NCBI GenBank assembly: GCA_041649135.1
Contig: JBAZNQ010000002.1
Location: 41,238-105,237 of the forward strand
Source of the DNA: Patescibacteria group bacterium
GTDB taxonomy: Bacteria; Patescibacteriota; Kazan-3B-28
Length of the DNA stretch: 64,000 nucleotides
Reading direction: 5' to 3'
The notes under the pieces were generated by a model. That model saw only the letters and a program-made list of their open reading frames with translations, was not told the origin of the DNA and did no database searches. Of the stretch, positions 18,674-35,287 are shown one piece after another; the first letter of the stretch is position 1, and each line of letters begins with the position of its first letter. A program made the translations under genes and the position numbers.

Positions 18674-18692
18674 TTAAATAAAGGACATCACT

Positions 18693-19694: not shown

Positions 19695-19706
19695 GGCGGA
19701 TACCAA

Positions 19707-20648
19707 TTAAACGACTTGTACTGGTGTCCCGTTGGGGGCCCAGTTATAAATGACACCAGATTCTCGGATGCCCCATCTCACGCAACCATGGGAAACGGCT
19801 CTACCTAGATGGGAGTAACCTTCATACAGCCGGCCTTGAGTATATAACCGACCGCCAGGATAAATCTCGCCTTCGGTGTATTTACTAGAACTTACCTTCC
19901 AGTACGGTAGTGAATGCATGCCATATCCGACAAAACCAGTTCGTTCATTGCTTAATCCCATCCAATTAGGCATCCACAAGGCATACTTACTCGAATAAGC
20001 ATTAGCGATGTGGTTATAGATGGTGTATTTACCAGCTGGCGTAGTATATCCTGCCCGACCAGATGAAATCGGCAAAGTCGCCACAATATAACCGTGTTCG
20101 ATCAGCTCCCCTTGTTGGGCGTTACGGTAGATCCGGATCTCTTTATCAACCGTACTCTGAATTTCCACTCCGTCTCCTACCTGTATCTGAATGACAATTG
20201 GATCACCGGGTAACCAGTAATTATTGATCACTGGCTGGAGATACTCTCGGTACCAACCAGCTCTTGCCGGAGCTTTGATCGTAAAATTAAAGGTTGCTAC
20301 ATTTCCAGCTCCCACCCAAGTCGTTGTATCTCGCAACCCGATCCGAGTCTCTGACAGCCACTGGCTGGTGGACCAAGCGCTCGGCCGGTCCTTCTCACCA
20401 GTCGAAAAGATCGTCCCAAGCTGAATTTGGGTATTGTCCCAACCGATCTCACTGACATTTTTGATTGGCACGATTACCGACACGATCGCGCCGGGTTGGG
20501 TCACCACATCGATTTTTTGGCTGGCCAAAATGTAATCAACTGTGTATTCCGCTTGGGCTGATGCGCTGTAAATATTCCAAAAACCCATTACCGCAACGAC
20601 GGCAATTCCTGCCCCCCTTGCAAGCTGGATCCACAACTGATTCCGCAT
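19707..20648 (-). CDS. L,D-transpeptidase (YkuD domain) with signal peptide
   Basis: C-terminal catalytic motif GRAVSHGCVRW (His/Cys dyad) and an N-terminal signal/TM segment. Confidence 0.8.
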   Translation of the reverse strand: MRNQLWIQLARGAGIAVVAVMGFWNIYSASAQAEYTVDYILASQKIDVVTQPGAIVSVIVPIKNVSEIGWDNTQIQLGTIFSTGEKDRPSAWSTSQWLSETRIGLRDTTTWVGAGNVATFNFTIKAPARAGWYREYLQPVINNYWLPGDPIVIQIQVGDGVEIQSTVDKEIRIYRNAQQGELIEHGYIVATLPISSGRAGYTTPAGKYTIYNHIANAYSSKYALWMPNWMGLSNERTGFVGYGMHSLPYWKVSSSKYTEGEIYPGGRLYTQGRLYEGYSHLGRAVSHGCVRWGIRESGVIYNWAPNGTPVQVV

Positions 20649-20736
20649 TAATTTTTAATTTTGGTTTTGAATATTAAATTAGTATAACAAAAAAACCGCT
20701 TCCAGTCAAGGGTTTAGCTCATTTTCTAGCGGATGA

Positions 20737-20964
20737 TCAGCTAAATAGGAACGGTAGATAGGCTTGAATACTGCTGTTGTCGGCCAAACTTTGCCAAATA
20801 ATGCTACCGATTAACCCCACTAACGATAGCGCCACCAGCCAAAGCATCCAATGTGGTGTCGTTTCCAGCTCTTCCGGCATATCAATAATTGCCAACCGCT
20901 TTTTCGCGTTTGCCTGTGTCAGGATTTGTCGGAGTCTTGATTTTACATTTTTCTTTTCCGCCAC
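20737..20964 (-). CDS. Small membrane protein (hypothetical)
   Basis: 75 aa with one clear TM helix (HWMLWLVALSLVGLIGSIIW). Confidence 0.3.
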   Translation of the reverse strand: MAEKKNVKSRLRQILTQANAKKRLAIIDMPEELETTPHWMLWLVALSLVGLIGSIIWQSLADNSSIQAYLPFLFS

Positions 20965-20971
20965 GACTTGA

Positions 20972-21637
20972 TTATAAATCAGGTTTGATAATTACTACAA
21001 CTTCGCCTTTGGGCGGATGAGCTAAAAAATGTTTTATCATTAGTCCGACCGGTAAGCTGATCACTTCCTCGTAGATCTTCGTCAGTTCCCGACCGACGAT
21101 CACCCCTCGTTCCCCCACCGTCGTCTGGATCTCCTGAAGTGTTTTTGCTAATCGGTTTGGCGATTCAAATAATACAATTGGTACATCCAACTCTGCCAAT
21201 TCTTTCATTAGGGTCTGCCGCCCCTTTTTCTTCGGCAAAAACCCAACGAACATAAAACTATCAGCGGGAATCCCCGCCACACTTAATAACGCTGTTACGG
21301 CACTCGGTCCCGGAATGGGCACTATTTTTGCTCCCGCTTCCCGGGCCAGTTCTACTAATCTTCCTCCTGGGTCAGCGATCGTCGGTGTTCCTGCATCGCT
21401 GACATACGCTACCGTCAGATTCTGCTGTAGATATCCGACGACTCGCTCCAACTCATCTGCTCGGCTATGCTGATGTATCCTCACTACGGGCGTTTTGATC
21501 TCATATTTAGTTAACAATTTTTTGGTTTGAGCGACATTCTCTGCCGCCACCCAATCAGCTTCTCTCAATACTCGTATCGCCCGTAAGGTGATATCTTCCA
21601 GATTTCCGATTGGCGTTCCAACCACAAATAAGGTCAT
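20972..21637 (-). CDS. rsmI: 16S rRNA (cytidine1402-2'-O)-methyltransferase
   Basis: Tetrapyrrole-methylase fold; N-terminus MTLFVVGTPIGNLEDITLRAIRVLREADWVAAE is the RsmI signature. Confidence 0.9.
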   Translation of the reverse strand: MTLFVVGTPIGNLEDITLRAIRVLREADWVAAENVAQTKKLLTKYEIKTPVVRIHQHSRADELERVVGYLQQNLTVAYVSDAGTPTIADPGGRLVELAREAGAKIVPIPGPSAVTALLSVAGIPADSFMFVGFLPKKKGRQTLMKELAELDVPIVLFESPNRLAKTLQEIQTTVGERGVIVGRELTKIYEEVISLPVGLMIKHFLAHPPKGEVVVIIKPDL

Positions 21638-22512
21638 TTCACCAATTGTTTAAGCCGATGATAAATCTTTGCCCACTCACTCAAACTTAAGTCCTGTGGC
21701 CTCATTTTTGGGTCAACCCCGATTTCCTCCAACAATTCTTGAACCGCTGTATCATCCAACCATAACCCGCCAGAGAGTGAATTGTGGAGTTGTTTCCGTT
21801 TCTCTCCGAAGCCAGCTTTTACGATTCTGAAAAATAGTTTGATGTTGTCGATGTCGTAAGGCGGTTGTTTAAACGGTCGGATCCGAATAATTGCCGAAGT
21901 TACTTCTGGCTTCGGCCAGAAAGAGGTTCTTGGGACCAAACTAATCAATTCCGGCTTGCCAAAAAACTGCACCGAAATGCCCAACAAGCTCAACTCTCCC
22001 GGTTCGGCAACAATTCGCTCGGCCACTTCCTTCTGCACCATTACCACGATTAAATCTGGTGGCAGATCAGTCTCCAAAAATAACTTCAGGATGGCCGAAG
22101 TGATGTAGTAAGGTAGATTAGAAACCAACTTATAGCTGGTCTTCCCCTGCTTCACTTTTGCCCAAGTCTTGTATCGGTCATGGATATACCGGCTGTCCAG
22201 TTTTAAAATATTTGATGGCAAAATATCCAAATTAGAATATCCGCTTCCCAACGCCTTGAGGATCTCTAGCACTTTCTTGTCAGTTTCTACGGCCAGCACC
22301 CGACCAGCTAAATCGGCCATCGGGAGAGTCATCACTCCAAACCCCGGTCCGATTTCTACCACAAAGTCTCCCTTTGACAATTCCGCCGCCGCTAGCATTT
22401 TGTCCAATATCTCCGGATCGATCAAAAAATGCTGACCCAAATTTTTCTGGGCTGACACATTGTAATAGGTCAGCAAACTCTTAATTGTTTTGAGATCAGT
22501 TAGGTCGATCAT
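21634..22512 (-). CDS. rsmA: 16S rRNA (adenine1518/1519-N6)-dimethyltransferase
   Basis: LGQHFLIDPEILDKM and an SAM-binding VVEIGPGFG motif; 4-nt overlap with rsmI. Confidence 0.92.
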   Translation of the reverse strand: MIDLTDLKTIKSLLTYYNVSAQKNLGQHFLIDPEILDKMLAAAELSKGDFVVEIGPGFGVMTLPMADLAGRVLAVETDKKVLEILKALGSGYSNLDILPSNILKLDSRYIHDRYKTWAKVKQGKTSYKLVSNLPYYITSAILKLFLETDLPPDLIVVMVQKEVAERIVAEPGELSLLGISVQFFGKPELISLVPRTSFWPKPEVTSAIIRIRPFKQPPYDIDNIKLFFRIVKAGFGEKRKQLHNSLSGGLWLDDTAVQELLEEIGVDPKMRPQDLSLSEWAKIYHRLKQLVK

Positions 22513-22608
22513 TTGGAATAATTAAGAATTAAGAATGAATAATGAAGAATGACGGAGGTCGCCTGCGGCGACTACTTTAATTTTTCACTTTTAACTATTC
22601 ACTATTAA

Positions 22609-23214
22609 CTAGATCTTGTAGTATTTTACTTTTATTTTTCCCGCTCCCAGCGGAGCGATAGCCGCAAATGCCGGTTCGTTCAAATCCAAATCAATTCCAG
22701 TAAACGCGCTTGGACCGTAATCATTGATCACTACATCTACGCTTTTGCCAGAATTAACCGCTACTACTCGCAACTTCGTACCCTTTGGATATTTTCGACT
22801 TGCCGCTGTTAGTTTATCACCAAATCGGTACCAAGTGGCCAATCCGGAATGAAGCTCACTTAATTTCGGTTTTGGAGGAGTTGCTACGGTCGCCAACGCT
22901 GTCTGCTGGATTTTGTAATTCTTGGCTACTGTTGCATCCAGTTTTGTCAAAGTGGCATCTTGGATCCACACAGTCATCATCGTGGCAAGTTGAGTGTCGG
23001 GAAGAGGATCAACCTGAAGCGTTTCGTAACTACCAAAATATTCTACTAACAATTCCGCCACATCCGTGGCAGCTGTAGTTGCGGTCCAACTTAAACCGTT
23101 ATAGTCCATGGTGATCAATCGGCTAGCTTGCACCGGTTGTTCGAATTGTCCTACTACTAATGTCGCGATTGCTAGTGTCCCAACTTGGATTAATACCTTC
23201 GGCCACTTACTCAT
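22609..23214 (-). CDS. RlpA-like double-psi beta-barrel (DPBB) lipoprotein
   Basis: N-terminal signal peptide and C-terminal GLATWYRFGDKLTAASRKYPKGTKLRVVAVNSGKSVDVVINDYGP matching the RlpA DPBB consensus. Confidence 0.75.
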   Translation of the reverse strand: MSKWPKVLIQVGTLAIATLVVGQFEQPVQASRLITMDYNGLSWTATTAATDVAELLVEYFGSYETLQVDPLPDTQLATMMTVWIQDATLTKLDATVAKNYKIQQTALATVATPPKPKLSELHSGLATWYRFGDKLTAASRKYPKGTKLRVVAVNSGKSVDVVINDYGPSAFTGIDLDLNEPAFAAIAPLGAGKIKVKYYKI

Positions 23215-25316
23215 TTACGTAGCTTTAATTTAGCGAGCTCTGCCGCCAATGTCTTAATCCCCGATTTCACAAATGCTACTGTCACAATATCGGCCGTTCG
23301 GCTAATCACCACCCCCTGACCAAATTGACTATGGTCGACTTTTGCTCCCGGCTTCAGACTATCCGAATAATGGATCTTCACCACTGTCGGTTGGTGAGTG
23401 TGAGCTGAAATTGTCTCCAACAATTCCGGTGGCAGATCGCTAATAAACCGTGAAGGCTGGTTTAACTGCAAACTGCCATAAATCAATCGTTCTCGAGCAT
23501 GAATCAGATAAACTTTCTTGCGGGCTCGAGTGATTCCGACATAGCACAATCGCCGTTCCTCCTCTAGTTCTTGACTATCAAATAAACTTCGACTGTGTGG
23601 GAAAAGGTTCTCCTCCATGCCGGCAATAAATACGTAGTCAAATTCTAGCCCCTTCGCCGAATGGAGTGTCATTAAAGTAATCGCATCCTCCGTTGGCTGA
23701 TAGTTGTCAATGTCGGCAATTAAAGTTACCTCCTCCAAAAATATTTCCAACGCTTCGGCTGTTTTGAGGTGGTCGTATTTTTCCATTACCGATTTCAACT
23801 CGTAGATGTTTTCTATTCGTGTTTGTCCCTCAATCCCAGTATCGGCCAACATCTTTTTGTAGCCGGTTTCCACCAAAATCACGTCCAACAATTTACTCAA
23901 ACTTACCGTCTGGCTTTTACTGACTAATCGTTTCAGAAGTTTGCCGAAAGTCTGCAGAACTGGCTGTAGGTTTGAATCTTGGAGCAGCAATTCCCCTGCA
24001 CTTATGCCGGTTTCAGCTACCTTCGCCATAAAGTCTTCCCACGTCTTTTTCCCAATCCCCCGCACCGGCACATTGATAATTCTCGCTAGTGCCAAAGTAT
24101 TGTTGGGGTTAGCCAGTACTCCTAAATACGCCAAGATGTCTTTTATCTCTTTCCGTTCGTAGAATCGGACTCCCCCAATTACCCGATATGGCAATCCAGC
24201 CCGTAGCAAAGATTCTTCAATACTGCGCGACTGGGCGTTGGTTCGATACAGGACCACCATGTCATTCAACTGAATTCGATGCTTGGCTCTTAATCGTTCC
24301 GCCTCCATTACAATAAACTCACCCTCTGCTTTTTCGGTGTTCGCTTCAAATATCGTCACCAACTCCCCTGCCGCTTGTTCGGTCCACAGCTTCTTTTCAC
24401 TCCGGTTCCGGTTATGGACGATCACCGAATGGGCGGCATCTAAAATATTTTGGCTCGAGCGGTAATTCTGCTCCAGTTTAATTACCATCGCTTTGGGGTA
24501 GTCACGATGAAAATTCAAAATGTTCTGGTAGTTCGCCCCTCGCCACGAATAAATCGACTGCCAGTCATCTCCTACCACAAACAAATTCTGATGCTTCTTT
24601 GCCAGTAACTTCACCAGTTCATATTGGGCTGTGTTGGTATCTTGATATTCATCTACCAAGATATATTCAAACTGTTTTTGGTATTTCTCCAATATCTTCG
24701 GTTCTTGGCGGAAAAGTTCCACCGTCTTCATAATTAAATCATCAAAATCTAACGACTGATTTTTGCGTAAGATATTTTGATAAGCTTCGTACACTCGGGC
24801 TACCGTCTGTTGAAAACTTCCCTGTGCTATTCCCCGATAACCAGCCACATCCACTAGCTCATTTTTCGCGCTGGAAATGTGTGACCGGACTGCCTCGGGA
24901 TGAATGTGTTTGGTATCAATCGATAATTCTTCCATGGCTCTTTTCACGGCTGTCAATTGGTCGTCGCCATCCAAAATCGTGAACTTCTGGCTGTAACCGA
25001 AATGTTTCGCTTCTATTCTCAACAGACGGGCGCAGAAGGAATGAAAGGTACTGATGAAAGTTGGTCGGGTGCTTCTTAAACCTAATAATCTTTGGACCCG
25101 CTCGCTCATTTCCCCTGCCGCTTTGTTGGTGAAAGTAATTGCTAAGATATTCGACAATGGGACTTTATGTTCTTGGTGCAGGTATGCAATCCGATGAGTT
25201 AACGCTTTAGTCTTTCCCGAACCAGCCCCCGCCAACACTAAAACTGGTCCTTTGATGACCTTAGTTGCTCTTACCTGTTCATTGTTTAATCCCGCCAAAA
25301 TGTCTTGCATACCCAC
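23211..25316 (-). CDS. pcrA: ATP-dependent DNA helicase PcrA/UvrD (SF1)
   Basis: Walker A AGAGSGKT, motifs FTNKAAGEM, VDEYQDTN and TLHSAKGLEFDYVF. Confidence 0.95.
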   Translation of the reverse strand: MGMQDILAGLNNEQVRATKVIKGPVLVLAGAGSGKTKALTHRIAYLHQEHKVPLSNILAITFTNKAAGEMSERVQRLLGLRSTRPTFISTFHSFCARLLRIEAKHFGYSQKFTILDGDDQLTAVKRAMEELSIDTKHIHPEAVRSHISSAKNELVDVAGYRGIAQGSFQQTVARVYEAYQNILRKNQSLDFDDLIMKTVELFRQEPKILEKYQKQFEYILVDEYQDTNTAQYELVKLLAKKHQNLFVVGDDWQSIYSWRGANYQNILNFHRDYPKAMVIKLEQNYRSSQNILDAAHSVIVHNRNRSEKKLWTEQAAGELVTIFEANTEKAEGEFIVMEAERLRAKHRIQLNDMVVLYRTNAQSRSIEESLLRAGLPYRVIGGVRFYERKEIKDILAYLGVLANPNNTLALARIINVPVRGIGKKTWEDFMAKVAETGISAGELLLQDSNLQPVLQTFGKLLKRLVSKSQTVSLSKLLDVILVETGYKKMLADTGIEGQTRIENIYELKSVMEKYDHLKTAEALEIFLEEVTLIADIDNYQPTEDAITLMTLHSAKGLEFDYVFIAGMEENLFPHSRSLFDSQELEEERRLCYVGITRARKKVYLIHARERLIYGSLQLNQPSRFISDLPPELLETISAHTHQPTVVKIHYSDSLKPGAKVDHSQFGQGVVISRTADIVTVAFVKSGIKTLAAELAKLKLRK

Positions 25317-25343
25317 ATATTATATACACTTGACCGCATAGCA

Positions 25344-25363
25344 ACTTAGAGTATTCTCTAAGT
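25344..25363 (+). promoter_or_regulatory. Perfect palindrome ACTTAGAG-TATT-CTCTAAGT in the divergent pcrA/biotinyl-protein promoter region (candidate operator)
   Basis: 8-bp arms with a 4-nt spacer, read directly from the sequence; an imperfect second inverted repeat TGCATACA...TGTGTGCA lies at 25364-25386. Confidence 0.4.
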
Positions 25364-25568
25364 GCATACATCTCAACTGTGTGCATTGCAGGTTCTGGGA
25401 GATGGGAATGACCAAGGTCGGCGAGGTTCGTTAACCTCCTCCTCGCATGCACGGCCTGCCCTTCGGGGTTCGAGTCGGAACCATCTCCCCCTTTTTAGTC
25501 CCAGAGCCGACTTGATTTTCTGCCATCACGAGTAGACAATAGCTCTATCTTGTCCCGAGGAGGATTTA

Positions 25569-25862
25569 ATGGGTTCAGGCGAAATGTTTCTGCTGGCTCC
25601 CCAATCAGGCAAAATCATTCAGTTTCTGGTGGAGGTTGGGCAGGACGTAGCAGAGGGGCAGACAGTCTTCGTCTTGGAGTATATGAAGATGCAGAATGAC
25701 ATCCCCTCCCCCAAGACCGGTCAGGTAGCCAAAATCTACTTCAAGCCGGAGGATATCGTCCAGCGGGACCAGCCAGTACTATTACTAACTGGTATAACCG
25801 AGGACTTGCCCCAATCCGAGACCCAGCCCATGTCAACCGACGACGAGGTATACCCCTATTAG
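25569..25862 (+). CDS. Biotin/lipoyl attachment (biotin carboxyl carrier-like) domain protein
   Basis: VLEYMKMQNDIPSPKTGQVAKIYFKPEDIVQRDQPVLLL closely resembles the BCCP core EAMKMMN...G-V..I.V..G..V....PL. Confidence 0.6.
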   Translation: MGSGEMFLLAPQSGKIIQFLVEVGQDVAEGQTVFVLEYMKMQNDIPSPKTGQVAKIYFKPEDIVQRDQPVLLLTGITEDLPQSETQPMSTDDEVYPY

Positions 25863-25883
25863 GACGCCTCGTCGTCCTTTTTC
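25861..25883 (+). terminator. Rho-independent terminator after the biotinyl-domain gene
   Basis: AGGACG-cctcgt-CGTCCT followed by TTTTT, overlapping the stop codon. Confidence 0.6.
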
Positions 25884-25984
25884 GGTATACTAAGAGTACT
25901 TGCCCCGTTAGAAATCTAAAAAACGGGCAGGACCGAGAGAGCAAAATAACAAGTTGGGCATAGCAAGCTAAGATTTCTAACAGG

Positions 25985-26728
25985 ATGTCAGGACACTCCA
26001 AGTGGTCTACTATCAAGCGGAAAAAAGGCGCCCTCGATGCCAAGAAGGGTGCCGAATTTACTAAGCTTGCCCGTTTAATCGAGGTTGCGGCCAAGTCGGG
26101 CGCCGATCCCAACATGAACTTCCGGCTTAAATTGGCTATTCAAAAAGCTAAGTCTGCCAATATGCCTTCTGCCAACATCGACAAAGCTGTCCGCAAAGGC
26201 GCTGGGCTAGATAAAGACAAAAGTAGCATTGAAGAAATTATGTACGAAGGTCTCGGACCGGGCAACGTGGCCGTCATGATCCAAGCCCTGACTGACAACA
26301 AAAACCGAACCGTCTCTGACTTGCGTAATCTTTTTACTAAAGCCGGTGGCAGTTTGGGAAACGCTGGTTCAGTCGCTTGGCAATTTGTCAGCAAAGGGAT
26401 TTTAATTGTTCCCCAAGGTGACCCCGACCTAGAATTAAAAGCTATTGAAGCCGGTGTGGAAGATATTCAGGATCAGGGCGACATTTGGGAGCTTCACACT
26501 CAACCTGCCCAACTTAATCAAGTTAAACAGGCGCTCATCACCGCTGGTGTTGCTATCTCGGAAGATAAGTTGGCTTTAGTTCCCACTAATTTAGTTAAAA
26601 TTACTGACCCAACTTTAGCCCAAAGGGTCATTCAATTTATGGAAACGCTCGAAGATAACGAAGACGTGGCAGAAGTTTTCAGCAATTTTGATATCGACGA
26701 CAGTGTTCTCTCCCAAATAGTAGACTAG
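25985..26728 (+). CDS. yebC: YebC/PmpR-family DNA-binding transcriptional regulator
   Basis: MSGHSKWSTIKRKKGALDAKKG...NKNRTVSDLR is the canonical YebC sequence. Confidence 0.95.
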   Translation: MSGHSKWSTIKRKKGALDAKKGAEFTKLARLIEVAAKSGADPNMNFRLKLAIQKAKSANMPSANIDKAVRKGAGLDKDKSSIEEIMYEGLGPGNVAVMIQALTDNKNRTVSDLRNLFTKAGGSLGNAGSVAWQFVSKGILIVPQGDPDLELKAIEAGVEDIQDQGDIWELHTQPAQLNQVKQALITAGVAISEDKLALVPTNLVKITDPTLAQRVIQFMETLEDNEDVAEVFSNFDIDDSVLSQIVD

Positions 26729-26929
26729 GTGCAACTGACGACCACACGTCATCCTGGTTCCCCCCTCGTCATTCCCGCGCAGGCGGGAATCCAGAAAAGA
26801 ATATTTTCTTTTTCTGTCTGGATCCTCGGGTCAAGGAACGTCTGACGTTCCAAGCCCGAGGATGACAAAATAAAATTGTGCCATAGGCAACGCCGCAATT
26901 ATTAACTATTCACTTTTAACTTTTCACTC

Positions 26930-27430
26930 ATGTCTCAAATTATTCTCGGTCTTGATCCCGGTACTGCCACCATTGGCTATGGTGTGATAGTGGCTGACAA
27001 AGCCGATGTCAAACACATTGCCCACGGCTGTATCATCACTTCAAAAACCGAAACCATGCCGACCCGATTAAACCAAATCGCTAAAGAGCTACGGATTTTA
27101 TTACGCAAATTCCAACCGGATTTAGTCGCAATTGAACAGCTCTACTTCGCTAAAAACGTAACTACCGCTATGACCGTTGCCCAAGCTCGTGGAGTGCTGA
27201 TCCAGACCGTTGCTAACCTCAATATCCCCGTCGAGCACTACACTCCCCTGCAGGTCAAACAAGCTCTGACTGGTTATGGCAAGGCGGACAAAACTCAAAT
27301 GCAGAAAATGGTTAAAGCCTTATTGGGACTGGCGGATATCCCCAAGCCGGATGATGCCGCCGATGCGCTGGCCGTCGCTGTCACTTGTGCCGCTTCCTCA
27401 AAACTGGCAAGTTTAAGTAAAGAACTATGA
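26930..27430 (+). CDS. ruvC: Crossover junction endodeoxyribonuclease RuvC
   Basis: ILGLDPGTATIGYGVI, with acidic catalytic residues and the motif DAADALAVA. Confidence 0.95.
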   Translation: MSQIILGLDPGTATIGYGVIVADKADVKHIAHGCIITSKTETMPTRLNQIAKELRILLRKFQPDLVAIEQLYFAKNVTTAMTVAQARGVLIQTVANLNIPVEHYTPLQVKQALTGYGKADKTQMQKMVKALLGLADIPKPDDAADALAVAVTCAASSKLASLSKEL

Positions 27431-27993
27431 TTGGAAACATCCACGGACAAGTTATCAGTAAGGGGCTGGACTGGGTACTCGTCGATACTACCGGCGGGGT
27501 TGGGTATAAAGTTTCTGTTACTCATTCAGTCTTGTCGAGTGCAGTCATCAACGAGCCCATCAGTCTGTTAACTCATTTAATTGTCCGCGAAGACCAATTG
27601 ACTCTCTATGGTTTTACCGCTCAAGCCGAGTTAGAGTTTTTTGTTCAGCTTATTTCTATTAGCGGGGTTGGCCCTCGGCTGGCTTTGAGTGTCCTCAATG
27701 CTGGCTCGGTTAATGAACTTAAAACTGCCATCGTCAGCAACAATCTTGCCATGCTCACCATGATCTCTGGTATTGGTAAAAAGACTGCTGAACGCATTAT
27801 GGTTGAATTAAAAAACCGCTTGGATGTAATCGGCATGCCGATCTCTGCTGACACTGAAGATTTGCTGTCGGCGCTTACCGGACTGGGGTATAATACTTAT
27901 GAAGTCCGCAAAATTTTGACTACATTACCAGCCAATCTCGCTTCTACTGAAGAAAAACTCAAATACGCACTTCAACTTTTGGGCAAGCAATAA
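27427..27993 (+). CDS. ruvA: Holliday junction branch-migration protein RuvA
   Basis: MIGNIHGQV...GVGYKV, HhH motifs ISGVGPRLAL / ISGIGKKTAERI, and a C-terminal RuvB-interaction domain; overlaps ruvC by 4 nt. Confidence 0.95.
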   Translation: MIGNIHGQVISKGLDWVLVDTTGGVGYKVSVTHSVLSSAVINEPISLLTHLIVREDQLTLYGFTAQAELEFFVQLISISGVGPRLALSVLNAGSVNELKTAIVSNNLAMLTMISGIGKKTAERIMVELKNRLDVIGMPISADTEDLLSALTGLGYNTYEVRKILTTLPANLASTEEKLKYALQLLGKQ

Positions 27994-28020
27994 ATTTATA
28001 TTGGCATAATCTAAGGAATC

Positions 28021-28199
28021 ATGAAGGGCAACAATCACTTTCTGTTCGGCGCCATGGATCTCTTTGATCAGATTCTTCTCCTCTTGGTCGGTGTCACAGT
28101 TTTGTTGATCAATCTTGGTCTTATCCCGTACTACTGGCTGGCTTACTGGCCAATTCTCTTGATCGCAGTCGCACTCAAGGAAATGCTACAGAATAATTA
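28021..28199 (+). CDS. Small hydrophobic protein (59 aa; below the ORF-track length cutoff)
   Basis: ATG at 28021; MKGNNHFLFGAMDLFDQILLLLVGVTVLLINLGLIPYYWLAYWPILLIAVALKEMLQNN has two TM helices; stop at 28197-28199. Confidence 0.3.
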
Positions 28200-28202
28200 A
28201 AA

Positions 28203-29201
28203 TTGGCACCGTTGAAACAAAACAAAGTTATTCTTACTACGGTAATTTTAGGTGGCCTAGCAGTTGTACTGCTAGGCACCTATTTTTGGTTGTTCGCGCC
28301 TGCGAATTATCGCGGTAAAGAGTATCTCTTTACCGTGCCGTCTGGTCAGTCAGTCGCTCAAATTATTGAAGGTTTACACAGCCAAGGCTTTGTTCGCTCA
28401 ATGTTTGGGACTCGCCTAGCCTTTGTCATCAGCGGTGGGCAGATTGTCCAAGCTGGCACTTACAACATTTCTCCGCGGATGGATGTTTGGCAGATCGCAC
28501 AAATTATGACTTCCGGCGATACCGCCGTTGCTGGCGTTACCATTCCCGAAGGCTATACGGTTGCCCAAATCGCCGCGACCTTAGACCAAAAAGGTGTTAT
28601 CGGCCAAGCTGTCTTTATCCAAGCGGTCAGTAGTTATCCAGCCAACGAAGACTTTCTTAAATCTCGCACTAAAACTGATTCTCTCGAAGGCTATCTCTTT
28701 CCTGATACTTATCAAATTAATAAAGGCACTCCCGCCAACGACATCATCAGTTTGATGCTAAATAATTTCCAGCGTCGGCTGGCTCCCCTCCAAACCCAAA
28801 TTGATAAATCGGGCCGCTCGTTGAACGAAATTATTATTCTTGCCTCATTAGTCGAAGATGAAGCCCGTACCGAAACCAACCGCAAGCTGGTTGCCCAAGT
28901 TTTATTGAACCGGCTAGCCAAGCCGATGCGACTAGATGTTGATGCCACCGTGCGATACATCACCGGCAATTGGACCGAACCAATTACCAAAGCGGACCTT
29001 GCTAGCAACTCACCTTACAATACCCGCAAATTTACTGGTCTGCCGCCAACTGCCATTTGTAACCCGAGCCTAATGTCGATTAAAGCTGTTCTTCTTCCCT
29101 CTCCTACCGATGCGCTGTACTACCTTACCGACAAGGACGGCGTGATGCATTACGCTAAGACTCTTGCCGAACACAACCAAAATAAAGCTAAATATCTGTA
29201 A
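28203..29201 (+). CDS. mltG: Endolytic murein transglycosylase MltG (YceG-like)
   Basis: N-terminal TM helix, YceG motifs GVTIPEGYTVAQIA, SLVEDEA and PYNTRKFTGLPPTAICNPS. Confidence 0.85.
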   Translation: MAPLKQNKVILTTVILGGLAVVLLGTYFWLFAPANYRGKEYLFTVPSGQSVAQIIEGLHSQGFVRSMFGTRLAFVISGGQIVQAGTYNISPRMDVWQIAQIMTSGDTAVAGVTIPEGYTVAQIAATLDQKGVIGQAVFIQAVSSYPANEDFLKSRTKTDSLEGYLFPDTYQINKGTPANDIISLMLNNFQRRLAPLQTQIDKSGRSLNEIIILASLVEDEARTETNRKLVAQVLLNRLAKPMRLDVDATVRYITGNWTEPITKADLASNSPYNTRKFTGLPPTAICNPSLMSIKAVLLPSPTDALYYLTDKDGVMHYAKTLAEHNQNKAKYL

Positions 29202-29204
29202 GAG

Positions 29205-30650
29205 ATGCGTCCGCACCAGTTTGTTTTGGTTTGTAGTATCGGGATCTTAATTGGTGTTGCATTTAGCTCTAAACTCGCTCTCGCATCGGTTGCTGTCATC
29301 ATCTCCGCTAGCCTATTCGGGTTAGTGGCAATTTTGCGACCGAAACCAATCGCGCTAGCCACCTCAATTTTTTGTTTAGCAATTTTGCTGGGTTGGTGGC
29401 GAGGGCAATCAGTCATCTTCCACAGGCCATTAGTCAGTGACCTCGACAGCCGGACTGCGATTATCACGGGGCAAGTAGTGAGTGACCCAGATGTCATCGG
29501 TAATCAGCAACGGTTACATCTTAATGTCACTTCAATCGATGAAGAGCCTCGCTCGGTAAAAATTATGTTAACTACATGGCATCTCCCAGCACTTCAATAC
29601 GCCGATCAATTCAACGGGAAAATAAAATTTACTCTCCCCCAAAATACCGATGAATTTCAATATTCCAATTATCTCGCTAAAGACGGTATTTATCTGACTG
29701 CTACGCAGGCCGGAGAATTCACCCAGATACCCAATTCGCGCCGTACTATTTTGGGCACACTATATGGGGTAAAGCATTGGGTCAACAAGGTCATCCATCA
29801 ATTTCTCCCCGAACCACACGGTGCTCTCTTGGGTGGATTACTACTTGGCATCAAAACTGATTTACCAGACGATTTCCGGATTGCCTTAAAAAATTCCGGT
29901 ACTTCTCATATCGTGGCCCTGTCTGGTGCTAACTTGACCATTATTATTACCTTCATGTTGTTTATGCTTCAGCGGCTACCTCGTCGGTTGGTTTGGCTAA
30001 TTTCCGGTGTTGCAATTTTAGGTTTCGTGATTATGACCGGAGCCGCCAGCTCCGTTGTCCGAGCCGCCATTATGGGTTGGATTTTATTATTAGCTGGATT
30101 ATGGGGCAGACATCGTTCCGCCTGTAATGCCATTCTTCTCGCTACTGCTACCATGGTATTAATTCATCCTCTAATTTTGTTTTACGATATCGGTTTTCAG
30201 CTCTCGATCGCCGCTACTATTGGACTAATGTATGGAGCGTCATTATTTTCCCGCTGGCCCAAATGGTTACCGAGTTTCATCACCCAGCCCTTGTCCGCCA
30301 CCGTTGGCGCCACCATTTTTACCCTGCCTTTGATCGCCCTATATTTCGGTGGTGTGTCTTGGGTGACCCTGGGTGCTAATCTTTTGATCGTCCCCCTAGT
30401 TCCCTACGTCATGTTAGTTGGCTGTGTCGGACTGGCGATCTTCCTAATCGCGCCCCAGTTAATTTGGGTTAATGTCTTAGTCTGGCCATTATCCGCTCTC
30501 ATGTTTGGCATCATTAACTGGTTTGGTCACCTGCCTTCAGCTTTTGTTGAACTGCCGCCTATTCCCATTTGGATGCCGATCCTATATTATCTGCTTTTAT
30601 CTATCGGAGTAATTTATGCCCAACATCGTCGATCGCCACAACTGGTTTAA
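29205..30650 (+). CDS. comEC: ComEC/Rec2 competence protein, membrane (DUF4131 + competence) domains
   Basis: Polytopic protein with the ComEC channel-domain pattern (HIVALSGANLTII...). Confidence 0.8.
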   Translation: MRPHQFVLVCSIGILIGVAFSSKLALASVAVIISASLFGLVAILRPKPIALATSIFCLAILLGWWRGQSVIFHRPLVSDLDSRTAIITGQVVSDPDVIGNQQRLHLNVTSIDEEPRSVKIMLTTWHLPALQYADQFNGKIKFTLPQNTDEFQYSNYLAKDGIYLTATQAGEFTQIPNSRRTILGTLYGVKHWVNKVIHQFLPEPHGALLGGLLLGIKTDLPDDFRIALKNSGTSHIVALSGANLTIIITFMLFMLQRLPRRLVWLISGVAILGFVIMTGAASSVVRAAIMGWILLLAGLWGRHRSACNAILLATATMVLIHPLILFYDIGFQLSIAATIGLMYGASLFSRWPKWLPSFITQPLSATVGATIFTLPLIALYFGGVSWVTLGANLLIVPLVPYVMLVGCVGLAIFLIAPQLIWVNVLVWPLSALMFGIINWFGHLPSAFVELPPIPIWMPILYYLLLSIGVIYAQHRRSPQLV

Positions 30651-31473
30651 GTGGATTTTGCTTGGTCTGTTAATTATTAACATTGGTCTTGGAGTTGTCC
30701 TCTATTTTCGCCCAGACGATCTGGAACACATTTATTTTTTTGATGTTGGCCAAGGCGATGCGTCATTGATCAAAACATCTGAAAATCGGTACATTCTCAT
30801 TGATGGTGGGCCAGACGAACGTATTATACCCGCGTTAGATAGCGTGATGCCGATGTGGCACAGACAATTGGATCTGGTGATTCTCACTCATCCTCACTCG
30901 GATCATGCTACTGGGTTGCTTAAGGTATTGGATCGCTATCAGGTAAAAGAATTTTGGTACACCGGTACGACTTACGATTCGGAAACCTATAAAACGTTAG
31001 TTGCCAAGATTACGGCTAGCAAAATTCCCATTCAACTTGCCAACCAAGGCGATAATTATTTAACCGGCAACACCCACCTTCGCGTTGTATTTCCTCCCAA
31101 CGAACAGCCCACCGCTAATGACCCTAACGAAACTTCGGTAGTTAGCTTGTTACAGTATCAAAATTTTGAAGTTTTGTTTACCGGTGATGCTAGTGTTGGT
31201 AACGAAACCAGTTACGCTACCCAGCTTCCCGACGTTGATGTCATTAAAGTTCCCCACCATGGCAGTAAAACTGCCTCCAGTCAGCTACTACTTTCCCAAT
31301 CGCGTCCGGAAATTGGTGTTATTAGTGTTGGCGCCCAAAACTCTTTTGGTCATCCTAGCCCGGAAACTCTCGCCCGCTACGAATCGGCTGGTACTAAACT
31401 ATATCGCACCGATACTAATAGAACGATTGAAATTATTACTGACGGCCAGCGCTATCGGATCAGGGCTAGTTGA
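30616..31473 (+). CDS. ComEC-type metallo-beta-lactamase domain protein, as a separate ORF overlapping comEC by 35 nt
   Basis: MBL motif LDLVILTHPHSDHATGL with further His/Asp ligands (HHGSK). This domain is normally fused to the ComEC C-terminus, so it is either a genuine split gene or a frameshift. Confidence 0.75.
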   Translation: MPNIVDRHNWFKWILLGLLIINIGLGVVLYFRPDDLEHIYFFDVGQGDASLIKTSENRYILIDGGPDERIIPALDSVMPMWHRQLDLVILTHPHSDHATGLLKVLDRYQVKEFWYTGTTYDSETYKTLVAKITASKIPIQLANQGDNYLTGNTHLRVVFPPNEQPTANDPNETSVVSLLQYQNFEVLFTGDASVGNETSYATQLPDVDVIKVPHHGSKTASSQLLLSQSRPEIGVISVGAQNSFGHPSPETLARYESAGTKLYRTDTNRTIEIITDGQRYRIRAS

Positions 31474-31814
31474 CTTTTTCCGCTCCCAGACTCTATAATA
31501 GGTCAGTTCAATTTTGGAGGTGTACCTTGGGTTGTGCAAAAGGCTCCCTCTCCGACGGGAATAGCAACCCGTCAGTTGCAAGTTCCAGCTGGTGTGTGTC
31601 AGCCATTGAGATTTATATACTGGGCATGGACGACCACCCCCCCGATCGCTCGTGTCGCCATCACTGGCGGAAAAGGCGTTGTTGCCGAGGTCGCTCAAAC
31701 GCTGTGTGATAATCCCCCAGAAGGAACCAAGTGTAAAGTTTACAGAGAGGGGGATAAACCCATGAGCTGAACTGTCTAGCAGTTGCCCAGCTCTCCCGTA
31801 GACAGACTTTATCT

Positions 31815-31846
31815 AGCGCCAGTCAACTGACTGGCGCTGATTCTTA
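31815..31846 (+). terminator. Strong hairpin AGCGCCAGTC-AACT-GACTGGCGCT followed by a T-rich tract
   Basis: 10-bp perfect stem read from the sequence, downstream of an SD-led 78-aa ORF (31528/31534..31770) in a GC-rich intergenic region. Confidence 0.45.
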
Positions 31847-32023
31847 TACAATAGAACTATACCTCGCAAAAATTGACGAACTTGCGAAGCGATCTACTTA
31901 TTGTTCGTCATCTCGCCTGCCCGTTGCGTTGCCACGGTACGCGGCCAGGGAGCCTGCCCGCCGGTCAGCGGGCCTACCGAGGAATCTCCCCTATAACAAG
32001 ACAGGCTCGTGATCTAATAGACA

Positions 32024-32320
32024 ATGAAAAATTTTATTAGAAAAGTTGAAGACTTCATCTGTGAGCACTGTGGTGCGCTGGTCAAAGGTACCGGCTACAC
32101 CAACCACTGTCCCGAGTGTCTTTGGAGCAAACATGTTGATGATCTTCCCGGTGACCGCTCCCACCCTTGTGGTGGCTTGATGGAGCCTATTGGGCTAGAG
32201 CTTCGTGGTGACAAACGCCAAATCATCCATCGTTGCCAGAAATGCGGGATAATAAAGAAGAACAAGGTTGCCGATAACGACAATCCCGATACCATCCTTG
32301 GGCTAGTAGAAAATAAGTAA
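32024..32320 (+). CDS. RNHCP-domain zinc-ribbon protein
   Basis: CEHCG...GYTNHCPECLWSKHVD...CQKCG matches the RNHCP domain (N-H-C-P) with flanking CxxC pairs. Confidence 0.6.
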   Translation: MKNFIRKVEDFICEHCGALVKGTGYTNHCPECLWSKHVDDLPGDRSHPCGGLMEPIGLELRGDKRQIIHRCQKCGIIKKNKVADNDNPDTILGLVENK

Positions 32321-32432
32321 ACTAGTAAAAGCCGCTAGTAACGGCAAATGATGAATGCCAAATAACCAATGATCGAATTTCCGGCTTTGCCGGAATACCA
32401 GAACTTTTCACTTTTAACTTTTCACTTTCCTC

Positions 32433-33452
32433 ATGCATTTAATTCCCATCCCTTGGACACTTCTTTTAACGGCCTTTGGCATTGCGTTTTTAATTACTCT
32501 CTTGGCAACGCCTTGGGTGACTAGTTTGGCTAAGCGTTACCGACTATTCGATTTGCCATCAGCTCGTCGGGTTCACACTAGTCCCATCCCCCGCATCGGC
32601 GGGCTAGCTTTATTTTTGGGATTTTTTATTGCGCTACTTGTTGTCTTCGGTTTCGACCCGCGTATTCTTGGTCTCGCGCTCTGCGCTATTTTAATTTTCG
32701 GGCTGGGTTTGTTGGATGATATTTATAGTCTTCCGCCAATCCTCAAATTTACTGGTCAGCTGGTAGTTGCCTCACTCGCAGTCTTTTTTGGGATTACTAT
32801 CGGCAACATTACCAATCCTTTCGGCGGGACAATTTTACTCTCCCCCATTTTTGACGTCAGTTTAACGATCGTGTGGATGCTATTGATGATCAATACCGTT
32901 AATTTTTTGGATGGATTGGATGGGCTAGCTACCGGCGTTACCGCTATCGTTTCCGTCGTGTTGGTAGTGTTAAGTTTATTTACGATTGTGGATCAACCCC
33001 AAACTGCTGCTCTTGCCGCGATGATTTGCGGCACGGCTCTGGGCTTCCTTTATTACAATTGGCACCCAGCTAAAATTTTTATGGGTGATGGAGGTTCTCA
33101 TTTGCTTGGCTTTATGTTGGCGGCTATTTCGATCATTAGTGGCGGGAAAATTGCCACGGCTGTTTTGGCTCTCGGTCTACCGGTCTTGGATTTGGTCTGG
33201 GCAATTGTCCGTCGGTTGAAAACCGGCAAAGCGCCATGGTCAGCCGACAAACTCCATCTCCACCACTTATTACTCTCCGCCGGCCTCGGCCAACGGACAG
33301 TGGTAACTATTTTTTATGTCTTTACTCTTGGCTTTGGTACAGTTGCGCTTCTTTCCGGAACTTGGAGCAAGTTGGTTGGTTTATTAATTGTCGGTTTGCT
33401 AATGGCGGGAATTGTGAGAGTAGCACTGTATTTTCGTCCGCAACAGAGGTAA
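32433..33452 (+). CDS. Polyprenyl-phosphate sugar-1-phosphate transferase (MraY/WecA family)
   Basis: About 10 TM helices, DD motif (LLDDIYSL) and family signature NTVNFLDGLDGLATG. Confidence 0.85.
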   Translation: MHLIPIPWTLLLTAFGIAFLITLLATPWVTSLAKRYRLFDLPSARRVHTSPIPRIGGLALFLGFFIALLVVFGFDPRILGLALCAILIFGLGLLDDIYSLPPILKFTGQLVVASLAVFFGITIGNITNPFGGTILLSPIFDVSLTIVWMLLMINTVNFLDGLDGLATGVTAIVSVVLVVLSLFTIVDQPQTAALAAMICGTALGFLYYNWHPAKIFMGDGGSHLLGFMLAAISIISGGKIATAVLALGLPVLDLVWAIVRRLKTGKAPWSADKLHLHHLLLSAGLGQRTVVTIFYVFTLGFGTVALLSGTWSKLVGLLIVGLLMAGIVRVALYFRPQQR

Positions 33453-33457
33453 ACATC

Positions 33458-33486
33458 TTGACAGAAAGGAGATTTTATTGTATGAT
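33458..33486 (+). promoter_or_regulatory. Canonical sigma70 promoter TTGACA-17-TATGAT
   Basis: TTGACA at 33458-33463, a 17-nt spacer, TATGAT at 33481-33486, about 40 nt upstream of the 33527 ORF start. Confidence 0.6.
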
Positions 33487-33526
33487 GAAGTAATTTGGAT
33501 TGCCAAATTAAAAAACCAAAACCAAC

Positions 33527-33982
33527 ATGAACAACCAACAGTTCGAACGTCTGGTAGAGAACCTACAAGACATTATGCGTTGCCCCCATTGTTCGGCGCG
33601 CTACACCTTGGCAGATATCCATTATCTAGGACAACTCGACTCAATGACATTTCTTCATATGCGCTGTGACTCTTGCCACACGCCGGTTTTTGCTAGTGTA
33701 GCGATGGCCAATACCGATGGCGAAATCCTTCCCTCCGATCTAACGGTGGACGATATTGCCGTTACCGACAATAGCGCCCAAATGGAAGATGACCTGTTGG
33801 AGCTTGGCTTTGAACGTCATACCTCCCCTACCCTAGAAGCTGAAGACGTACAAATTCCAATTGAAGATGTCTCTGCCGAGACTATCCTTCGTTCACTAAA
33901 CCCAATTGCTTATGATGATGTGCTCGATATCCACACCTATCTGACTGACTTTACCGGAGACTTTGAACATATTTTCTCTTGA
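33527..33982 (+). CDS. Hypothetical zinc-ribbon protein with acidic C-terminus
   Basis: CPHCSARY...CDSCHTP four-Cys motif; C-terminal half rich in Asp/Glu. Confidence 0.5.
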   Translation: MNNQQFERLVENLQDIMRCPHCSARYTLADIHYLGQLDSMTFLHMRCDSCHTPVFASVAMANTDGEILPSDLTVDDIAVTDNSAQMEDDLLELGFERHTSPTLEAEDVQIPIEDVSAETILRSLNPIAYDDVLDIHTYLTDFTGDFEHIFS

Positions 33983-34073
33983 ATAAGTCCCCCTATTCCC
34001 TAACCCCTAATCCCTAGTCCCTAGCATTAACCCTTTGACTTCCAGAGGGTTTTTGGTTAGTCTAGGGTTTGTT

Positions 34074-34739: not shown

Positions 34740-34764
34740 ACTTGTAAAATATTTAAACTTTCAA

Positions 34765-34796
34765 TCACCCGCGATTATCCGCGGGTGATTTTTATT
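34765..34796 (+). terminator. Rho-independent terminator after rplY
   Basis: TCACCCGCG-attatc-CGCGGGTGA followed by TTTTTATT. Confidence 0.7.
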
Positions 34797-34947
34797 CCAA
34801 GTGTGTTTTTGGTTTAGTCAAATTTAAAAAATAAAGTTACTCTTGTATTGTTTTTTAAAAAGTGTTCTTCTATAATTTAATTGACAAGTTGTTGCGCGTT
34901 ACCTTCGCATAATAACTTTGTTCGAACATTGTTATATCAGTTAAGTC

Positions 34948-35169: not shown

Positions 35170-35186
35170 TGCAGTTAATGCATTAT

Positions 35187-35277: not shown

Positions 35278-35287
35278 AGGGTGTTCT

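Follow-up and report, generated by a model that had tools for sequence, protein, structure and literature searches.

Tandem heptamer repeats at the starts and stops of bacterial genes have been known for a decade in Beggiatoaceae, cyanobacteria and xanthomonads, and no explanation has been found for them. The closest described families are the TAACTGA direct repeats of Beggiatoaceae, Cyanobacteria and some Bacteroidetes, which lie a few nucleotides (nt) upstream of starts devoid of a Shine-Dalgarno (SD) sequence (MacGregor 2015; PMC4679880), and the GGGAATC and GGGGA(C/T)T heptamers of Xanthomonas and Nostoc, which are transcribed and vary between relatives, and whose function was left unresolved (Rehm et al. 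2015; PMC4692102). Here, we analyse a further family, built of the heptamers TTCACTT and TTAACTW, in a 64,000-nt stretch of a Patescibacteria genome (contig JBAZNQ010000002.1, positions 41,238 to 105,237; hereafter the window), where such arrays stand directly before the start codons of ruvC, of a gene for an MraY/WecA-like Glycos_transf_4 protein (hereafter GT4) and of alaS, and directly after the stop codon of rlpA. These arrays are a lineage-specific family within the known class of intergenic bacterial heptamer repeats at the boundaries of open reading frames (ORFs), and not a new kind of system. They follow a rule of polarity shown below: the pyrimidine-rich strand is the sense strand before starts, the purine-rich strand is the sense strand after stops, and complete elements are imperfect palindromes whose core is often a GC (guanine-cytosine) hairpin.

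The same polarity was reported for the Xanthomonas and Nostoc repeats: their purine-rich strand is coding 0-50 bp after stops (some repeats overlapping the stop) and non-coding 0-50 bp before starts, and of the two neighbouring ORFs the nearer one is always that on the 5' flank of the G-rich strand, regardless of its orientation (PMC4692102). The same study described heptamers as over-represented among bacterial simple-sequence repeats, proposed a polymerase footprint as explanation, and linked the preference for four units to the formation of G-quadruplexes. As partners of the TAACTGA repeats, MacGregor proposed, without tests, ribosomal protein S1, a cold-shock protein (Csp) or CsrA, and cited the binding of CspB to T-rich heptamers such as TTCTTTT, with one protein per heptamer (PMC4679880). 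In Haemophilus influenzae, hmw1A and hmw2A carry a transcribed (ATCTTTC)n array in the 5' untranslated region (5'UTR); as one arm of a hairpin, it regulates expression in cis at the RNA level (PMC12721329). Comparable to the cyanobacterial short tandemly repeated repetitive (STRR) sequences, the heptamers TTCAAAA and GAC(C/T)AAT of Nostoc affect reporter expression when near start codons, and deletion of the recO repeats altered the action of LexA and NtcA on the reporter, no binding partner being known (bioRxiv 10.1101/2022.06.06.494920). Lastly, the ctxAB promoter of Vibrio cholerae has TTTTGAT heptads, which recruit transcriptional activators (bioRxiv 10.1101/2021.05.14.444153). As for the family studied here, a literature search with the exact repeat sequences returned primers as its sole matches; Rfam 15 gave 0 matches at E <= 1 in positions 17900-37100 of the window, and tRNA alone exceeded the gathering threshold over the whole window.

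Four arrays were originally noted in the window (RuvC, Glycos_transf_4, AlaS, RsmA and the RlpA-like protein, DPBB_1, being identified from Pfam):

26898-26929, forward strand: ruvC array, ATTATTAACTATTCACTTTTAACTTTTCACTC, reading ATTATTA-ACTATTC-ACTTTTA-ACTTTTC-ACTC, followed by the ruvC ATG at 26930; 0 G in 32 nt.
32403-32432, forward strand: GT4 array, ACTTTTCACTTTTAACTTTTCACTTTCCTC, pyrimidine-rich, followed by the GT4 ATG at 32433; 0 G in 30 nt.
36888-36925, forward strand: alaS array, ACTTTTAACTATTCACTTTTAACTCTTCACTTTCTTCT, pyrimidine-rich, putatively in the 5'UTR, followed by the alaS ATG at 36926; 0 G in 38 nt.
22577-22611, reverse strand: array on the rlpA side, TTAATTTTTCACTTTTAACTATTCACTATTAACTA; read in the sense of rlpA and rsmA, it is a purine-rich arm, TAG-TTAATAGTGAATAGTTAAAAGTGAAAAATTAA, starting at the rlpA stop codon (22609-22611).

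Direct reading confirms that the copies lie where the original prediction had placed them and that three of them end exactly at an ATG; the start codons of ruvC, GT4 and alaS also match the N-termini of their orthologues. The repeat itself, announced as a tandem motif of about 14 bp, is real and beyond chance, but its unit is 7 bp: Tandem Repeats Finder returned periods of 7 and 14 at all four sites, and the former 14-mer consists of two heptamers, TTCACTT and TTAACTW, which mostly alternate, in register, in arrays of 3-5 units. Similarly, the last unit described as TTCACTTTC(C/T)TC directly before ATG fits GT4 and, roughly, alaS, but not ruvC (TTCACTC-ATG). Allowing up to 2 mismatches, the 14-mer has 11 matches in the window versus 1.25 expected, a score reached in 0 of 100 shuffles, and arrays of at least three heptamer units number 6 versus 0.11 in block shuffles. 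A repeat search groups the four copies as one family, in register over 36 nt. None of these four arrays contains a single G, so that neither ATG, GTG or TTG nor anything SD-like can occur inside them. Moreover, near-identical contigs from four independent metagenome assemblies (99.87-100% identical to the window) carry identical arrays, which are thus not assembly artefacts. No copy-number polymorphism was found among these four assemblies, a weak test given that the databases hold no strain between 81% and 100% AlaS identity.

The analysis was extended to 10 kb of left flank (L233:1-10000, ENA contig k141_2643646, the same contig as the window). About 6 kb left of the window, another ACTTTTM array (L233:3013-3044) is preceded by a GC hairpin, TTCTGCCATTAGGCAGAA, and followed by CCCTC-ATG, in frame with yidC; an array of a different heptamer, (TTCTCTC)n, at L233:5018-5052, lies upstream of a flippase gene and ends just short of its ATG. 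All arrays of the window and flank lie outside genes, the rlpA-side array overlapping the rlpA stop codon. In this whole region, an ATG follows 0-6 nt after the end of all 4 forward copies, and both reverse copies start at a stop codon.

The reverse copies belong to spacers in which both kinds of arm occur:

22557-22573: central GC hairpin of the rlpA-rsmA spacer, GGTCGCCTGCGGCGACT, called terminator-like by the scan of the forward strand, with tail ACTTTAATTT.
22516-22552, reverse strand: sister array of ATTCTTM units, TCATTCT-TCATTAT-TCATTCT-TAATTCT-TAATTAT-TC, a pyrimidine arm followed by CAA and the rsmA ATG (22512).
18117-18145, forward strand: degenerate purine arm, AAAGTCAAAAGTTAATAGTGGAGAGTGAA, directly after the ftsK stop codon (18114-18116); its reverse complement fits the motif.
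18160-18184, forward strand: weak pyrimidine arm, TTACCTAAATTCTTAATTTTTAATT, T-rich, ending at the yajQ ATG (18185).

As rlpA and rsmA are both on the minus strand, the sense strand of their spacer reads, in order, rlpA stop, purine arm TTAATAGTGAATAGTTAAAAGTGAA, GC hairpin, ATTCTTM arm, CAA and rsmA ATG. The spacer is predicted to fold into one long hairpin of which the two arrays are the arms (-22.1 kcal/mol, z = -3.1), and the call at 22557-22573 on the forward strand is the sole terminator-scan call among the array sites of the window. The rlpA-side copy had been taken for an orientation-independent one. It is indeed opposite in orientation to the flanking genes, but it is bound by a strict polarity, since it starts at the rlpA stop. 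A triple-frame stop cassette before starts was also considered and dropped, the forward arrays having TAA in one or two frames only; the purine strand does fit such a cassette.

The same heptamers recur far outside this genome. The exact 20-mer pattern TTCACTTTTAACTNTTCACT is present in at least 119 species genomes (one genome per species searched), whereas our own estimate of chance occurrence is about 4 at uniform composition and at most about 30 in AT-rich genomes. The matches listed include Bacteroidota, Clostridia, several groups of the candidate phyla radiation, Gammaproteobacteria (Parabeggiatoa among them), Planctomycetota, Nitrospirota, Acidobacteriota, Chloroflexota, one cyanobacterium and others, with cultured isolates represented; nearly all of these listed matches extend in register beyond the seed, 105 of 122 having 4-10 units. 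In phage contigs, 19 matches were obtained, versus 4, 1 and 1 for three controls of equal composition and 7-nt architecture.

Polarity was examined in 119 loci of 8 kb taken from the matches listed, which together hold 190 arrays in 855 kb (further arrays being present in 43 of the 119). ORFs of at least 120 codons run into the purine strand at 85 of the 190 arrays, 58 of them stopping at the array edge and 23 reading through, and into the pyrimidine strand at only 11. On the start side, ATG-initiated ORFs of this length begin within 16 nt past the pyrimidine strand in 22 cases and past the purine strand in 8 (p = 0.012). When ORFs of at least 60 codons are counted, the asymmetry (24 versus 16) is not significant; thus, outside this genome, the start-side rule is weaker than the stop-side rule.

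Paired arms are ordered just as strictly: the purine arm precedes the pyrimidine arm 19 times and follows it once (p = 4e-5), and of 181 arrays, 47 have an exact inverted 9-mer partner no more than 200 nt away on the 5' side of the T strand, and 2 have one on its 3' side. The palindromes consist of a purine arm, a core of 3-116 nt and a pyrimidine arm, and many arrays are the 3' arm of one. Since their outer ends touch genes, an incoming gene meets the purine arm after its stop and an outgoing gene is preceded by the pyrimidine arm, which accounts simply for the polarity rule; the chirality is that of a bidirectional intrinsic terminator. Two loci illustrate the complete element. In L119, from a Nitrospirota metagenome-assembled genome (MAG), positions 196-345 hold a cyclic di-GMP-I riboswitch aptamer (RF01051, 44.4 bits) and, directly 3' of it, an array-built hairpin (-28.9 kcal/mol, z = -5.6) followed by UUUUU; this putative terminator stem occupies the position expected for the terminator of the expression platform, and unlike the start-proximal arrays of the window it has the GC stem and U-tract of a terminator. 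In L077, the succession of purine arm, core, pyrimidine arm, 5-7 nt and ATG is repeated between consecutive genes. A GC hairpin, found before the GT4, yidC and 22577 arrays, was tried as a defining part of the element and dropped, as it is not general in 120 arrays. Arrays can also be embedded in longer repeats: in a Bacteroidales MAG (L047:2258-4318), a unit of about 290 bp is repeated eight times in tandem, every copy having one array followed by AAAA-ATG, and in Capnocytophaga sp. oral taxon 338 (L096:399-6493) 8 kb of sequence contain seven arrays, including one of 13 units, inside a longer repeated element.

The age of the arrays was approached through relatives of the host. Its AlaS is short (570 aa), the relatives of this protein are annotated as Patescibacteria, the nearest named one being candidate division Kazan at 65% identity, and the window is free of HIP1 (highly iterated palindrome) sites; a cyanobacterial origin, suggested by the STRR-like repeats, was rejected on these grounds. 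A protein-guided scan of metagenome contigs yielded about 15 syntenic loci (GT4 identity 43-77%) with conserved gene order, and the spacers that house the arrays in the window are lacking in them. Between yebC and ruvC, the distance from stop to ATG is 0-20 nt in L125, L126, L133, L135, L138 and L141, versus a spacer of 201 nt in the window; RNHCP and GT4 abut in L124, L133, L229 and others, versus 112 nt; and rlpA and rsmA are separated by 0-4 nt in relatives, versus 96 nt. Arrays of the TTCACTT/TTAACTW family number 2 in 881 kb of related and other loci, as against the 6 of the window, and one of these two (L133) is in reverse orientation, abutting the alaS stop codon. Judged from these contigs, the arrays are shown to have been gained in this lineage, in spacers that its syntenic relatives lack; with a nucleotide identity of about 70% to the nearest relatives, gained means since that split, not necessarily recently. 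Being absent from syntenic relatives, the arrays are not a conserved regulatory site.

Other repeats occupy the same junctions elsewhere in the clade. The octamer ACTAGGTC fills the RNHCP-GT4 spacer in L125, L126 and L132, with 5.5 copies in L125 and 6.5 in L126, two strains 98.2% identical, which amounts to a copy-number change at the junction; at L125:9942-9985 and L126:9934-9985 it ends 14 nt before the GT4 ATG. L232, with 81% AlaS identity, has degenerate ATTCTTG/ATTCATA heptamers before alaS, at the position of the array in the window. Concerning the placement of this region in the chromosome, the window begins close to the replication origin, given that dnaA and dnaN are found 7-9 kb to the left of its first position.

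Translation starts in the window give the arrays their context. The original prediction held that genes led by an array start without an SD sequence behind a repeated, non-random element, which is correct: none of GGAG, GAGG, AGGA or AAGG is present at -18..-4 of ruvC, GT4, alaS or rsmA, and no G at all occurs in their -30..-1. The contrast that it drew with classical GGAGG sites in other genes is true of few of them, GGAG or GAGG at -18..-4 being found in 8 of 49 genes and missing from the rest, and 5 of these 8 lie at 49-60 kb, inside an integrated mobile element (45-64 kb). The contrast thus mostly sets host DNA against foreign DNA; genes of the host backbone normally start without an SD, and 9 of the 49 genes look leaderless, with a TAnnnT box 5-9 nt before the start. 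The array-led starts also have little predicted structure. The folding energy of the initiation region (-40..+20) averages -8.0 kcal/mol (standard deviation 5.0) over the 49 genes, versus 0.0 for ruvC (the lowest structure of all 49), 0.0 for GT4 and -0.9 for alaS (rank 5 of 49); no other gene has less structure than the first two, and the ruvC and GT4 arrays remain unpaired when the whole spacer is folded.

Some neighbouring starts are worth recording. At 33500-33526, directly before a gene for a 151-aa hypothetical protein, lies a G-free, A/C-rich leader with a periodicity of 6-7 nt (AAAACCAAAAACC...ATG). It is conserved across the clade, at the equivalent position in L124, L125, L129, L136, L137 and L141, so that SD-free unstructured leaders are an old habit of the lineage. 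At 3382-3402, an 11-nt direct repeat, ATAATTAAGGG, present 1.9 times and ending 1 nt before the ATG at 3404, doubles an SD-like AAGG. The mobile element (45394-64000) sits beside tRNA-Gly (45394-45467), has a GC content of 0.52-0.58 versus about 0.46 in the backbone, and encodes a large serine recombinase (45456-46967, minus strand), a type IV secretion coupling protein (49986-51653), a Replic_Relax protein (55376-56377), an AAA_13 ATPase, an N6/N4 methylase and a type III restriction enzyme.

Three further features lie upstream of the ruvC, GT4 and alaS arrays:

26729-26897, forward strand: structured part of the yebC-ruvC spacer, with several hairpins (-70.7 kcal/mol, z = -5.5); the spacer is lacking in relatives.
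32379-32395, forward strand: GC hairpin, TTCCGGCTTTGCCGGAA, of 7 bp, 7 nt upstream of the GT4 array, without a canonical U-tract and not called by the terminator scan.
36865-36870, forward strand: -10-like box TATATT upstream of the alaS array, TATAnT being invariant in 10 lineages in an alignment of the upstream region.

The TATAnT box lies 9-12 nt from the alaS ATG in the six closer relatives that lack an insertion, whose alaS mRNA would thus be leaderless or nearly so, and 17-19 nt from it in the most distant pair. The window and L232 both have a distance of 55 nt, and in the window the heptamer array fills the gap; since it lies downstream of the conserved box, the alaS array is most likely transcribed 5'UTR. 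For GT4, a consensus-like promoter (TTGACT-18-TATAAT, at 31470-31499) was called upstream of RNHCP and none in the RNHCP-GT4 spacer, so that the GT4 array is probably intercistronic, and the same argument applies to ruvC. A scan for sigma-70-type promoters called no forward-strand site at the arrays, and the terminator scan called nothing at the ruvC, GT4 or alaS arrays; a canonical terminator role was accordingly rejected for these three start-proximal copies. Near-consensus promoter-like sites, TTGACTGGnAGCG...TGnTATAAT or TATACT, are found at 20681-20714 and 36770-36803 (both on the minus strand, serving ykuD and an aminotransferase gene, respectively), 43734-43755 and 48078-48099, from which it follows that the organism uses canonical sigma-70-type promoters.

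Our favoured reading, to which we give a probability of roughly 55%, is that the arrays form a cis-acting element working at the RNA level, as an unstructured SD-free leader before starts and as an arm of an intercistronic hairpin after stops, and not a site for a regulator of double-stranded DNA (dsDNA). The arrays would arise and spread by replication slippage, template switching or block copying, would be transcribed as intercistronic RNA or 5'UTR, and would act only in cis on RNA. Start-proximal copies (ruvC, GT4, alaS, yidC and the ATTCTTM array of rsmA) would supply a G-free leader without structure, SD or upstream start codon, onto which ribosomes would load by an SD-independent route that most genes of this genome would need anyway. 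Stop-proximal copies (rlpA, ftsK), in turn, would be the 5' arm of an AU-rich hairpin between cistrons, of terminator type or of repetitive extragenic palindromic (REP) type. We infer both the effect on initiation or termination and the mode of origin of the arrays.

Several observations weigh against this reading. Transcription of the arrays is inferred only from the conserved -10-like box at alaS and the operon context at ruvC and GT4. The hairpins preceding the start-proximal arrays of the window have no canonical U-tracts, so a terminator-like role is unsupported for those three, and these solo arrays have no purine partner. The ftsK-yajQ spacer resembles the rlpA-rsmA spacer in layout, but the predicted pairing of its arms equals that of shuffled sequence (z = 0.0). 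In the sample of 120 arrays, a GC hairpin lies near the 5' side in 21 and near the 3' side in 12. As to origin, the invariance of the arrays in four assemblies means that ongoing slippage is not supported here, and an identical order of variant units in two arrays of the window points to block copying. Finally, if any unstructured G-free leader were sufficient, the recurrence of identical heptamers across phyla would go unexplained.

The strongest rival, which we consider rather unlikely, is that the arrays are neutral or selfish by-products of polymerase slippage or copying, persisting where they are harmless, that is, with the G-free strand before starts and the purine strand after stops. 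It draws support from their lack of conservation among relatives, and from the occurrence of different repeats at the same junctions according to lineage (the ACTAGGTC octamer in L125, L126 and L132, ATTCATA-like heptamers in L232). The downstream genes share no functional theme, which is also the case in PMC4679880 and PMC4692102, and the over-representation of heptamers with the polymerase-footprint idea (PMC4692102) would provide a source. It is harder to see, however, why a streamlined genome should have added about 100-200 nt of spacer to each of several junctions and retained these spacers before core housekeeping genes. Neutrality also sits badly with a heptamer pair 5-19 times commoner than controls of equal composition and period, with the very strict polarity and palindrome chirality, and with one array-built hairpin standing at the expected position of a riboswitch terminator.

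A second rival, quite improbable in our view, sees in the arrays a binding site, on RNA or single-stranded DNA, for an oligonucleotide-binding (OB)-fold protein with a 7-nt footprint, such as a cold-shock protein or S1, the arrays defining a post-transcriptional regulon or enhancing SD-independent initiation. The motif UUAACUUUU, present in every array, matches 8 of the 9 bases of the epsilon enhancer of T7 gene 10, UUAACUUUA. This enhancer is complementary to helix 17 of 16S rRNA, and the likeness would speak for such a role. So would the exact 7-nt period, the T-richness and the single-stranded state of the arrays in predicted folds; the same heptamers across phyla would suit a universal partner, and MacGregor's proposal of S1, Csp or CsrA, together with the citation on CspB heptamers, goes in the same direction (PMC4679880). 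Against one recognition sequence, unrelated heptamers (ATTCTTM, TTCTCTC and CCCTAAT, the last described below) and the ACTAGGTC octamer of relatives occupy equivalent positions, and the majority class across phyla, the purine strand after stops, is not explained by a protein that binds T-rich sequence.

A bolder version of the cross-phylum recurrence would make the UUCACUU/UUAACUU pair and its complement a sequence-specific recognition unit shared between phyla, for instance the 7-nt register of cold-shock-domain or S1 OB folds, and its arrays a widespread "punctuation" code of gene boundaries in which a hairpin ends the message upstream, SD-free loading begins the next one downstream, and spread is horizontal, phages included; we regard it as a long shot.

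That the array is itself a promoter for a leaderless or short-leader mRNA, with TAACTT as a TAnnnT -10 box, is very improbable. At ruvC, TAACTT stands 7 nt before ATG, as a leaderless gene would require, the window has many leaderless-like genes, with TATAAT or TATACT 6-8 nt before the ATG, and a 4-unit array gives TTCACT-N16-TAACTT, which resembles TTGACA-N17-TATAAT. The spacing is nevertheless 12-13 nt at GT4, alaS and yidC, the box is TAACTC at alaS, and the -35 position at ruvC reads CGCAAT, whereas the clear promoter-like sites of this genome are near consensus (TTGACT-17-TATAAT); no forward-strand promoter was called at any array, and at alaS the ancestral -10 box is kept upstream. Hardly credible, lastly, is the dsDNA operator or UP (upstream promoter) element of the original prediction, with direct repeats bound by a transcription factor or by the RNA polymerase alpha subunit: there are indeed direct repeats upstream of genes, with a 7-bp spacing that makes three units two helical turns, and the ctxAB heptads are a precedent (bioRxiv 10.1101/2021.05.14.444153), but at alaS the conserved -10-like box precedes the array, relatives lack the arrays, polarity goes with the boundaries of coding sequence, stops included, some arrays of other genomes lie inside ORFs, and the array strand yielded neither a promoter call nor a promoter-like hexamer pair, and no regulator gene is linked.

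Other repeats were encountered in the window. At 33991-34023 and 34029-34051 lie a second heptamer family (CCCTATT, CCCTAAC, CCCTAAT, CCCTAGT), which begins 9 nt downstream of the stop codon of the 151-aa gene, and, next to it and ahead of the L25 gene, a terminator-like hairpin; the complement of the family, ATTAGGG-like, recalls the G-rich heptamers known from Xanthomonas and Nostoc. Two blocks, 91-93% identical, make up a duplicated leader of about 95 nt, at 6161-6254 before a DHH-family gene (6252) and at 25896-25987 before yebC (25985). The complementary segments CCCGTTAGAAAT and ATTTCTAACGGG of this leader would pair up to the ATG; its second copy has no Rfam match. Between the gene of a small basic protein and the aminotransferase gene, two tandem copies of 37 nt, 97% identical (35204-35277), each hold the palindrome CTTTTATATGGCTATATAAAAG. 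A small lysine/arginine-rich ORF (34997-35163) contains tandem repeats of 42-45 nt, where L129 has 13.6 copies of a 15-nt unit.

The interest of the TTCACTT/TTAACTW arrays is threefold. Their host is a streamlined member of the Patescibacteria whose relatives lack the spacers, so that the gain is directly visible, before alaS, ruvC, the MraY/WecA-like GT4, yidC and rsmA. As the family is G-free on one strand, it cannot form G-quadruplexes, and the polarity rule that it shares with the G-rich heptamers cannot depend on them. Many phyla (at least 119 species genomes) and phages, moreover, have one and the same heptamer pair in common, arranged with the chirality of bidirectional terminators. Should the favoured cis-acting role in SD-free initiation or in the marking of cistrons be true, the arrays would offer a simple, portable element for the study of non-canonical initiation in uncultured bacteria; should they be inert, they would be a clean example of selection filtering repeat insertions by strand and position.

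Among the systems described above, the ctxAB heptads are likewise T-rich heptamers in tandem before a gene, with an influence of copy number on expression, but these lie in a promoter and act through transcription factors on dsDNA, whereas the arrays of the window are downstream of a -10 box or intercistronic, with a polarity set by coding boundaries. The STRR and the Nostoc heptamers are also contiguous and are found within 30-100 nt of the starts or promoters of numerous genes unrelated to each other, in some cases overlapping a start codon; they differ in sequence and in phylum, and the window has no HIP1 sites.

With bidirectional terminators and REP-type hairpins, the palindromes share the succession of A-rich arm, GC hairpin and U-rich arm, a chirality that is the same on both strands (19:1) and a location right after stops. 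Their arms, however, are heptamer arrays and not plain A- or U-tracts, the U-rich arm usually lies more than 2 nt from the stem, the copies have no conserved core, and no REP-associated transposase was seen. As regards miniature inverted-repeat transposable elements and mobile REP-type palindromes, inverted heptamer arms are present, the cores are dissimilar within the window, no duplication flanks the spacers, and the order of variant units shared by two arrays hints at copying. The hmw arrays are also a pyrimidine-rich heptamer (ATCTTTC versus ACTTTTC) between promoter and start codon that pairs with a purine-rich partner as the arm of a long hairpin, as in the rlpA-rsmA spacer. They have at least 11 units, are hypervariable (phase variation), are processed by RNase III and are followed by a normal ribosome-binding site, whereas those of the window have 3-5 units, are invariant in four assemblies and abut the ATG without an SD, and a purine arm paired with an array is seen in the rlpA-rsmA spacer alone.

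The two closest families remain those of Rehm et al. and MacGregor. The GGGAATC type is G-rich and forms G-quadruplexes or i-motifs, which the window family, with one strand free of G, cannot do; it agrees with it in the polarity rule, in inverted pairs able to form stem-loops, in variation of sequence and length between relatives and in the lack of a functional theme. As for the TAACTGA repeats, the window units TTCACTT, TTAACTT and TTAACTA have TAACT alone in common with them; in the register of TAACTGA they read TAACTTT, TCACTTT and TAACTAT, they are wholly G-free, their host belongs to the Patescibacteria, and their hairpin-forming inverted pairs are frequent, versus one indirect repeat among 170 sets (PMC4679880). 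Both families nonetheless consist of short tandem arrays (2-6 units for TAACTGA) with the core TAACT, intergenic and mostly forward just upstream of starts, with occasional reverse copies next to the upstream ORF and some arrays inside ORFs in reverse; in both, the downstream genes are mostly without SD and without functional theme, and the distribution is patchy across phyla.

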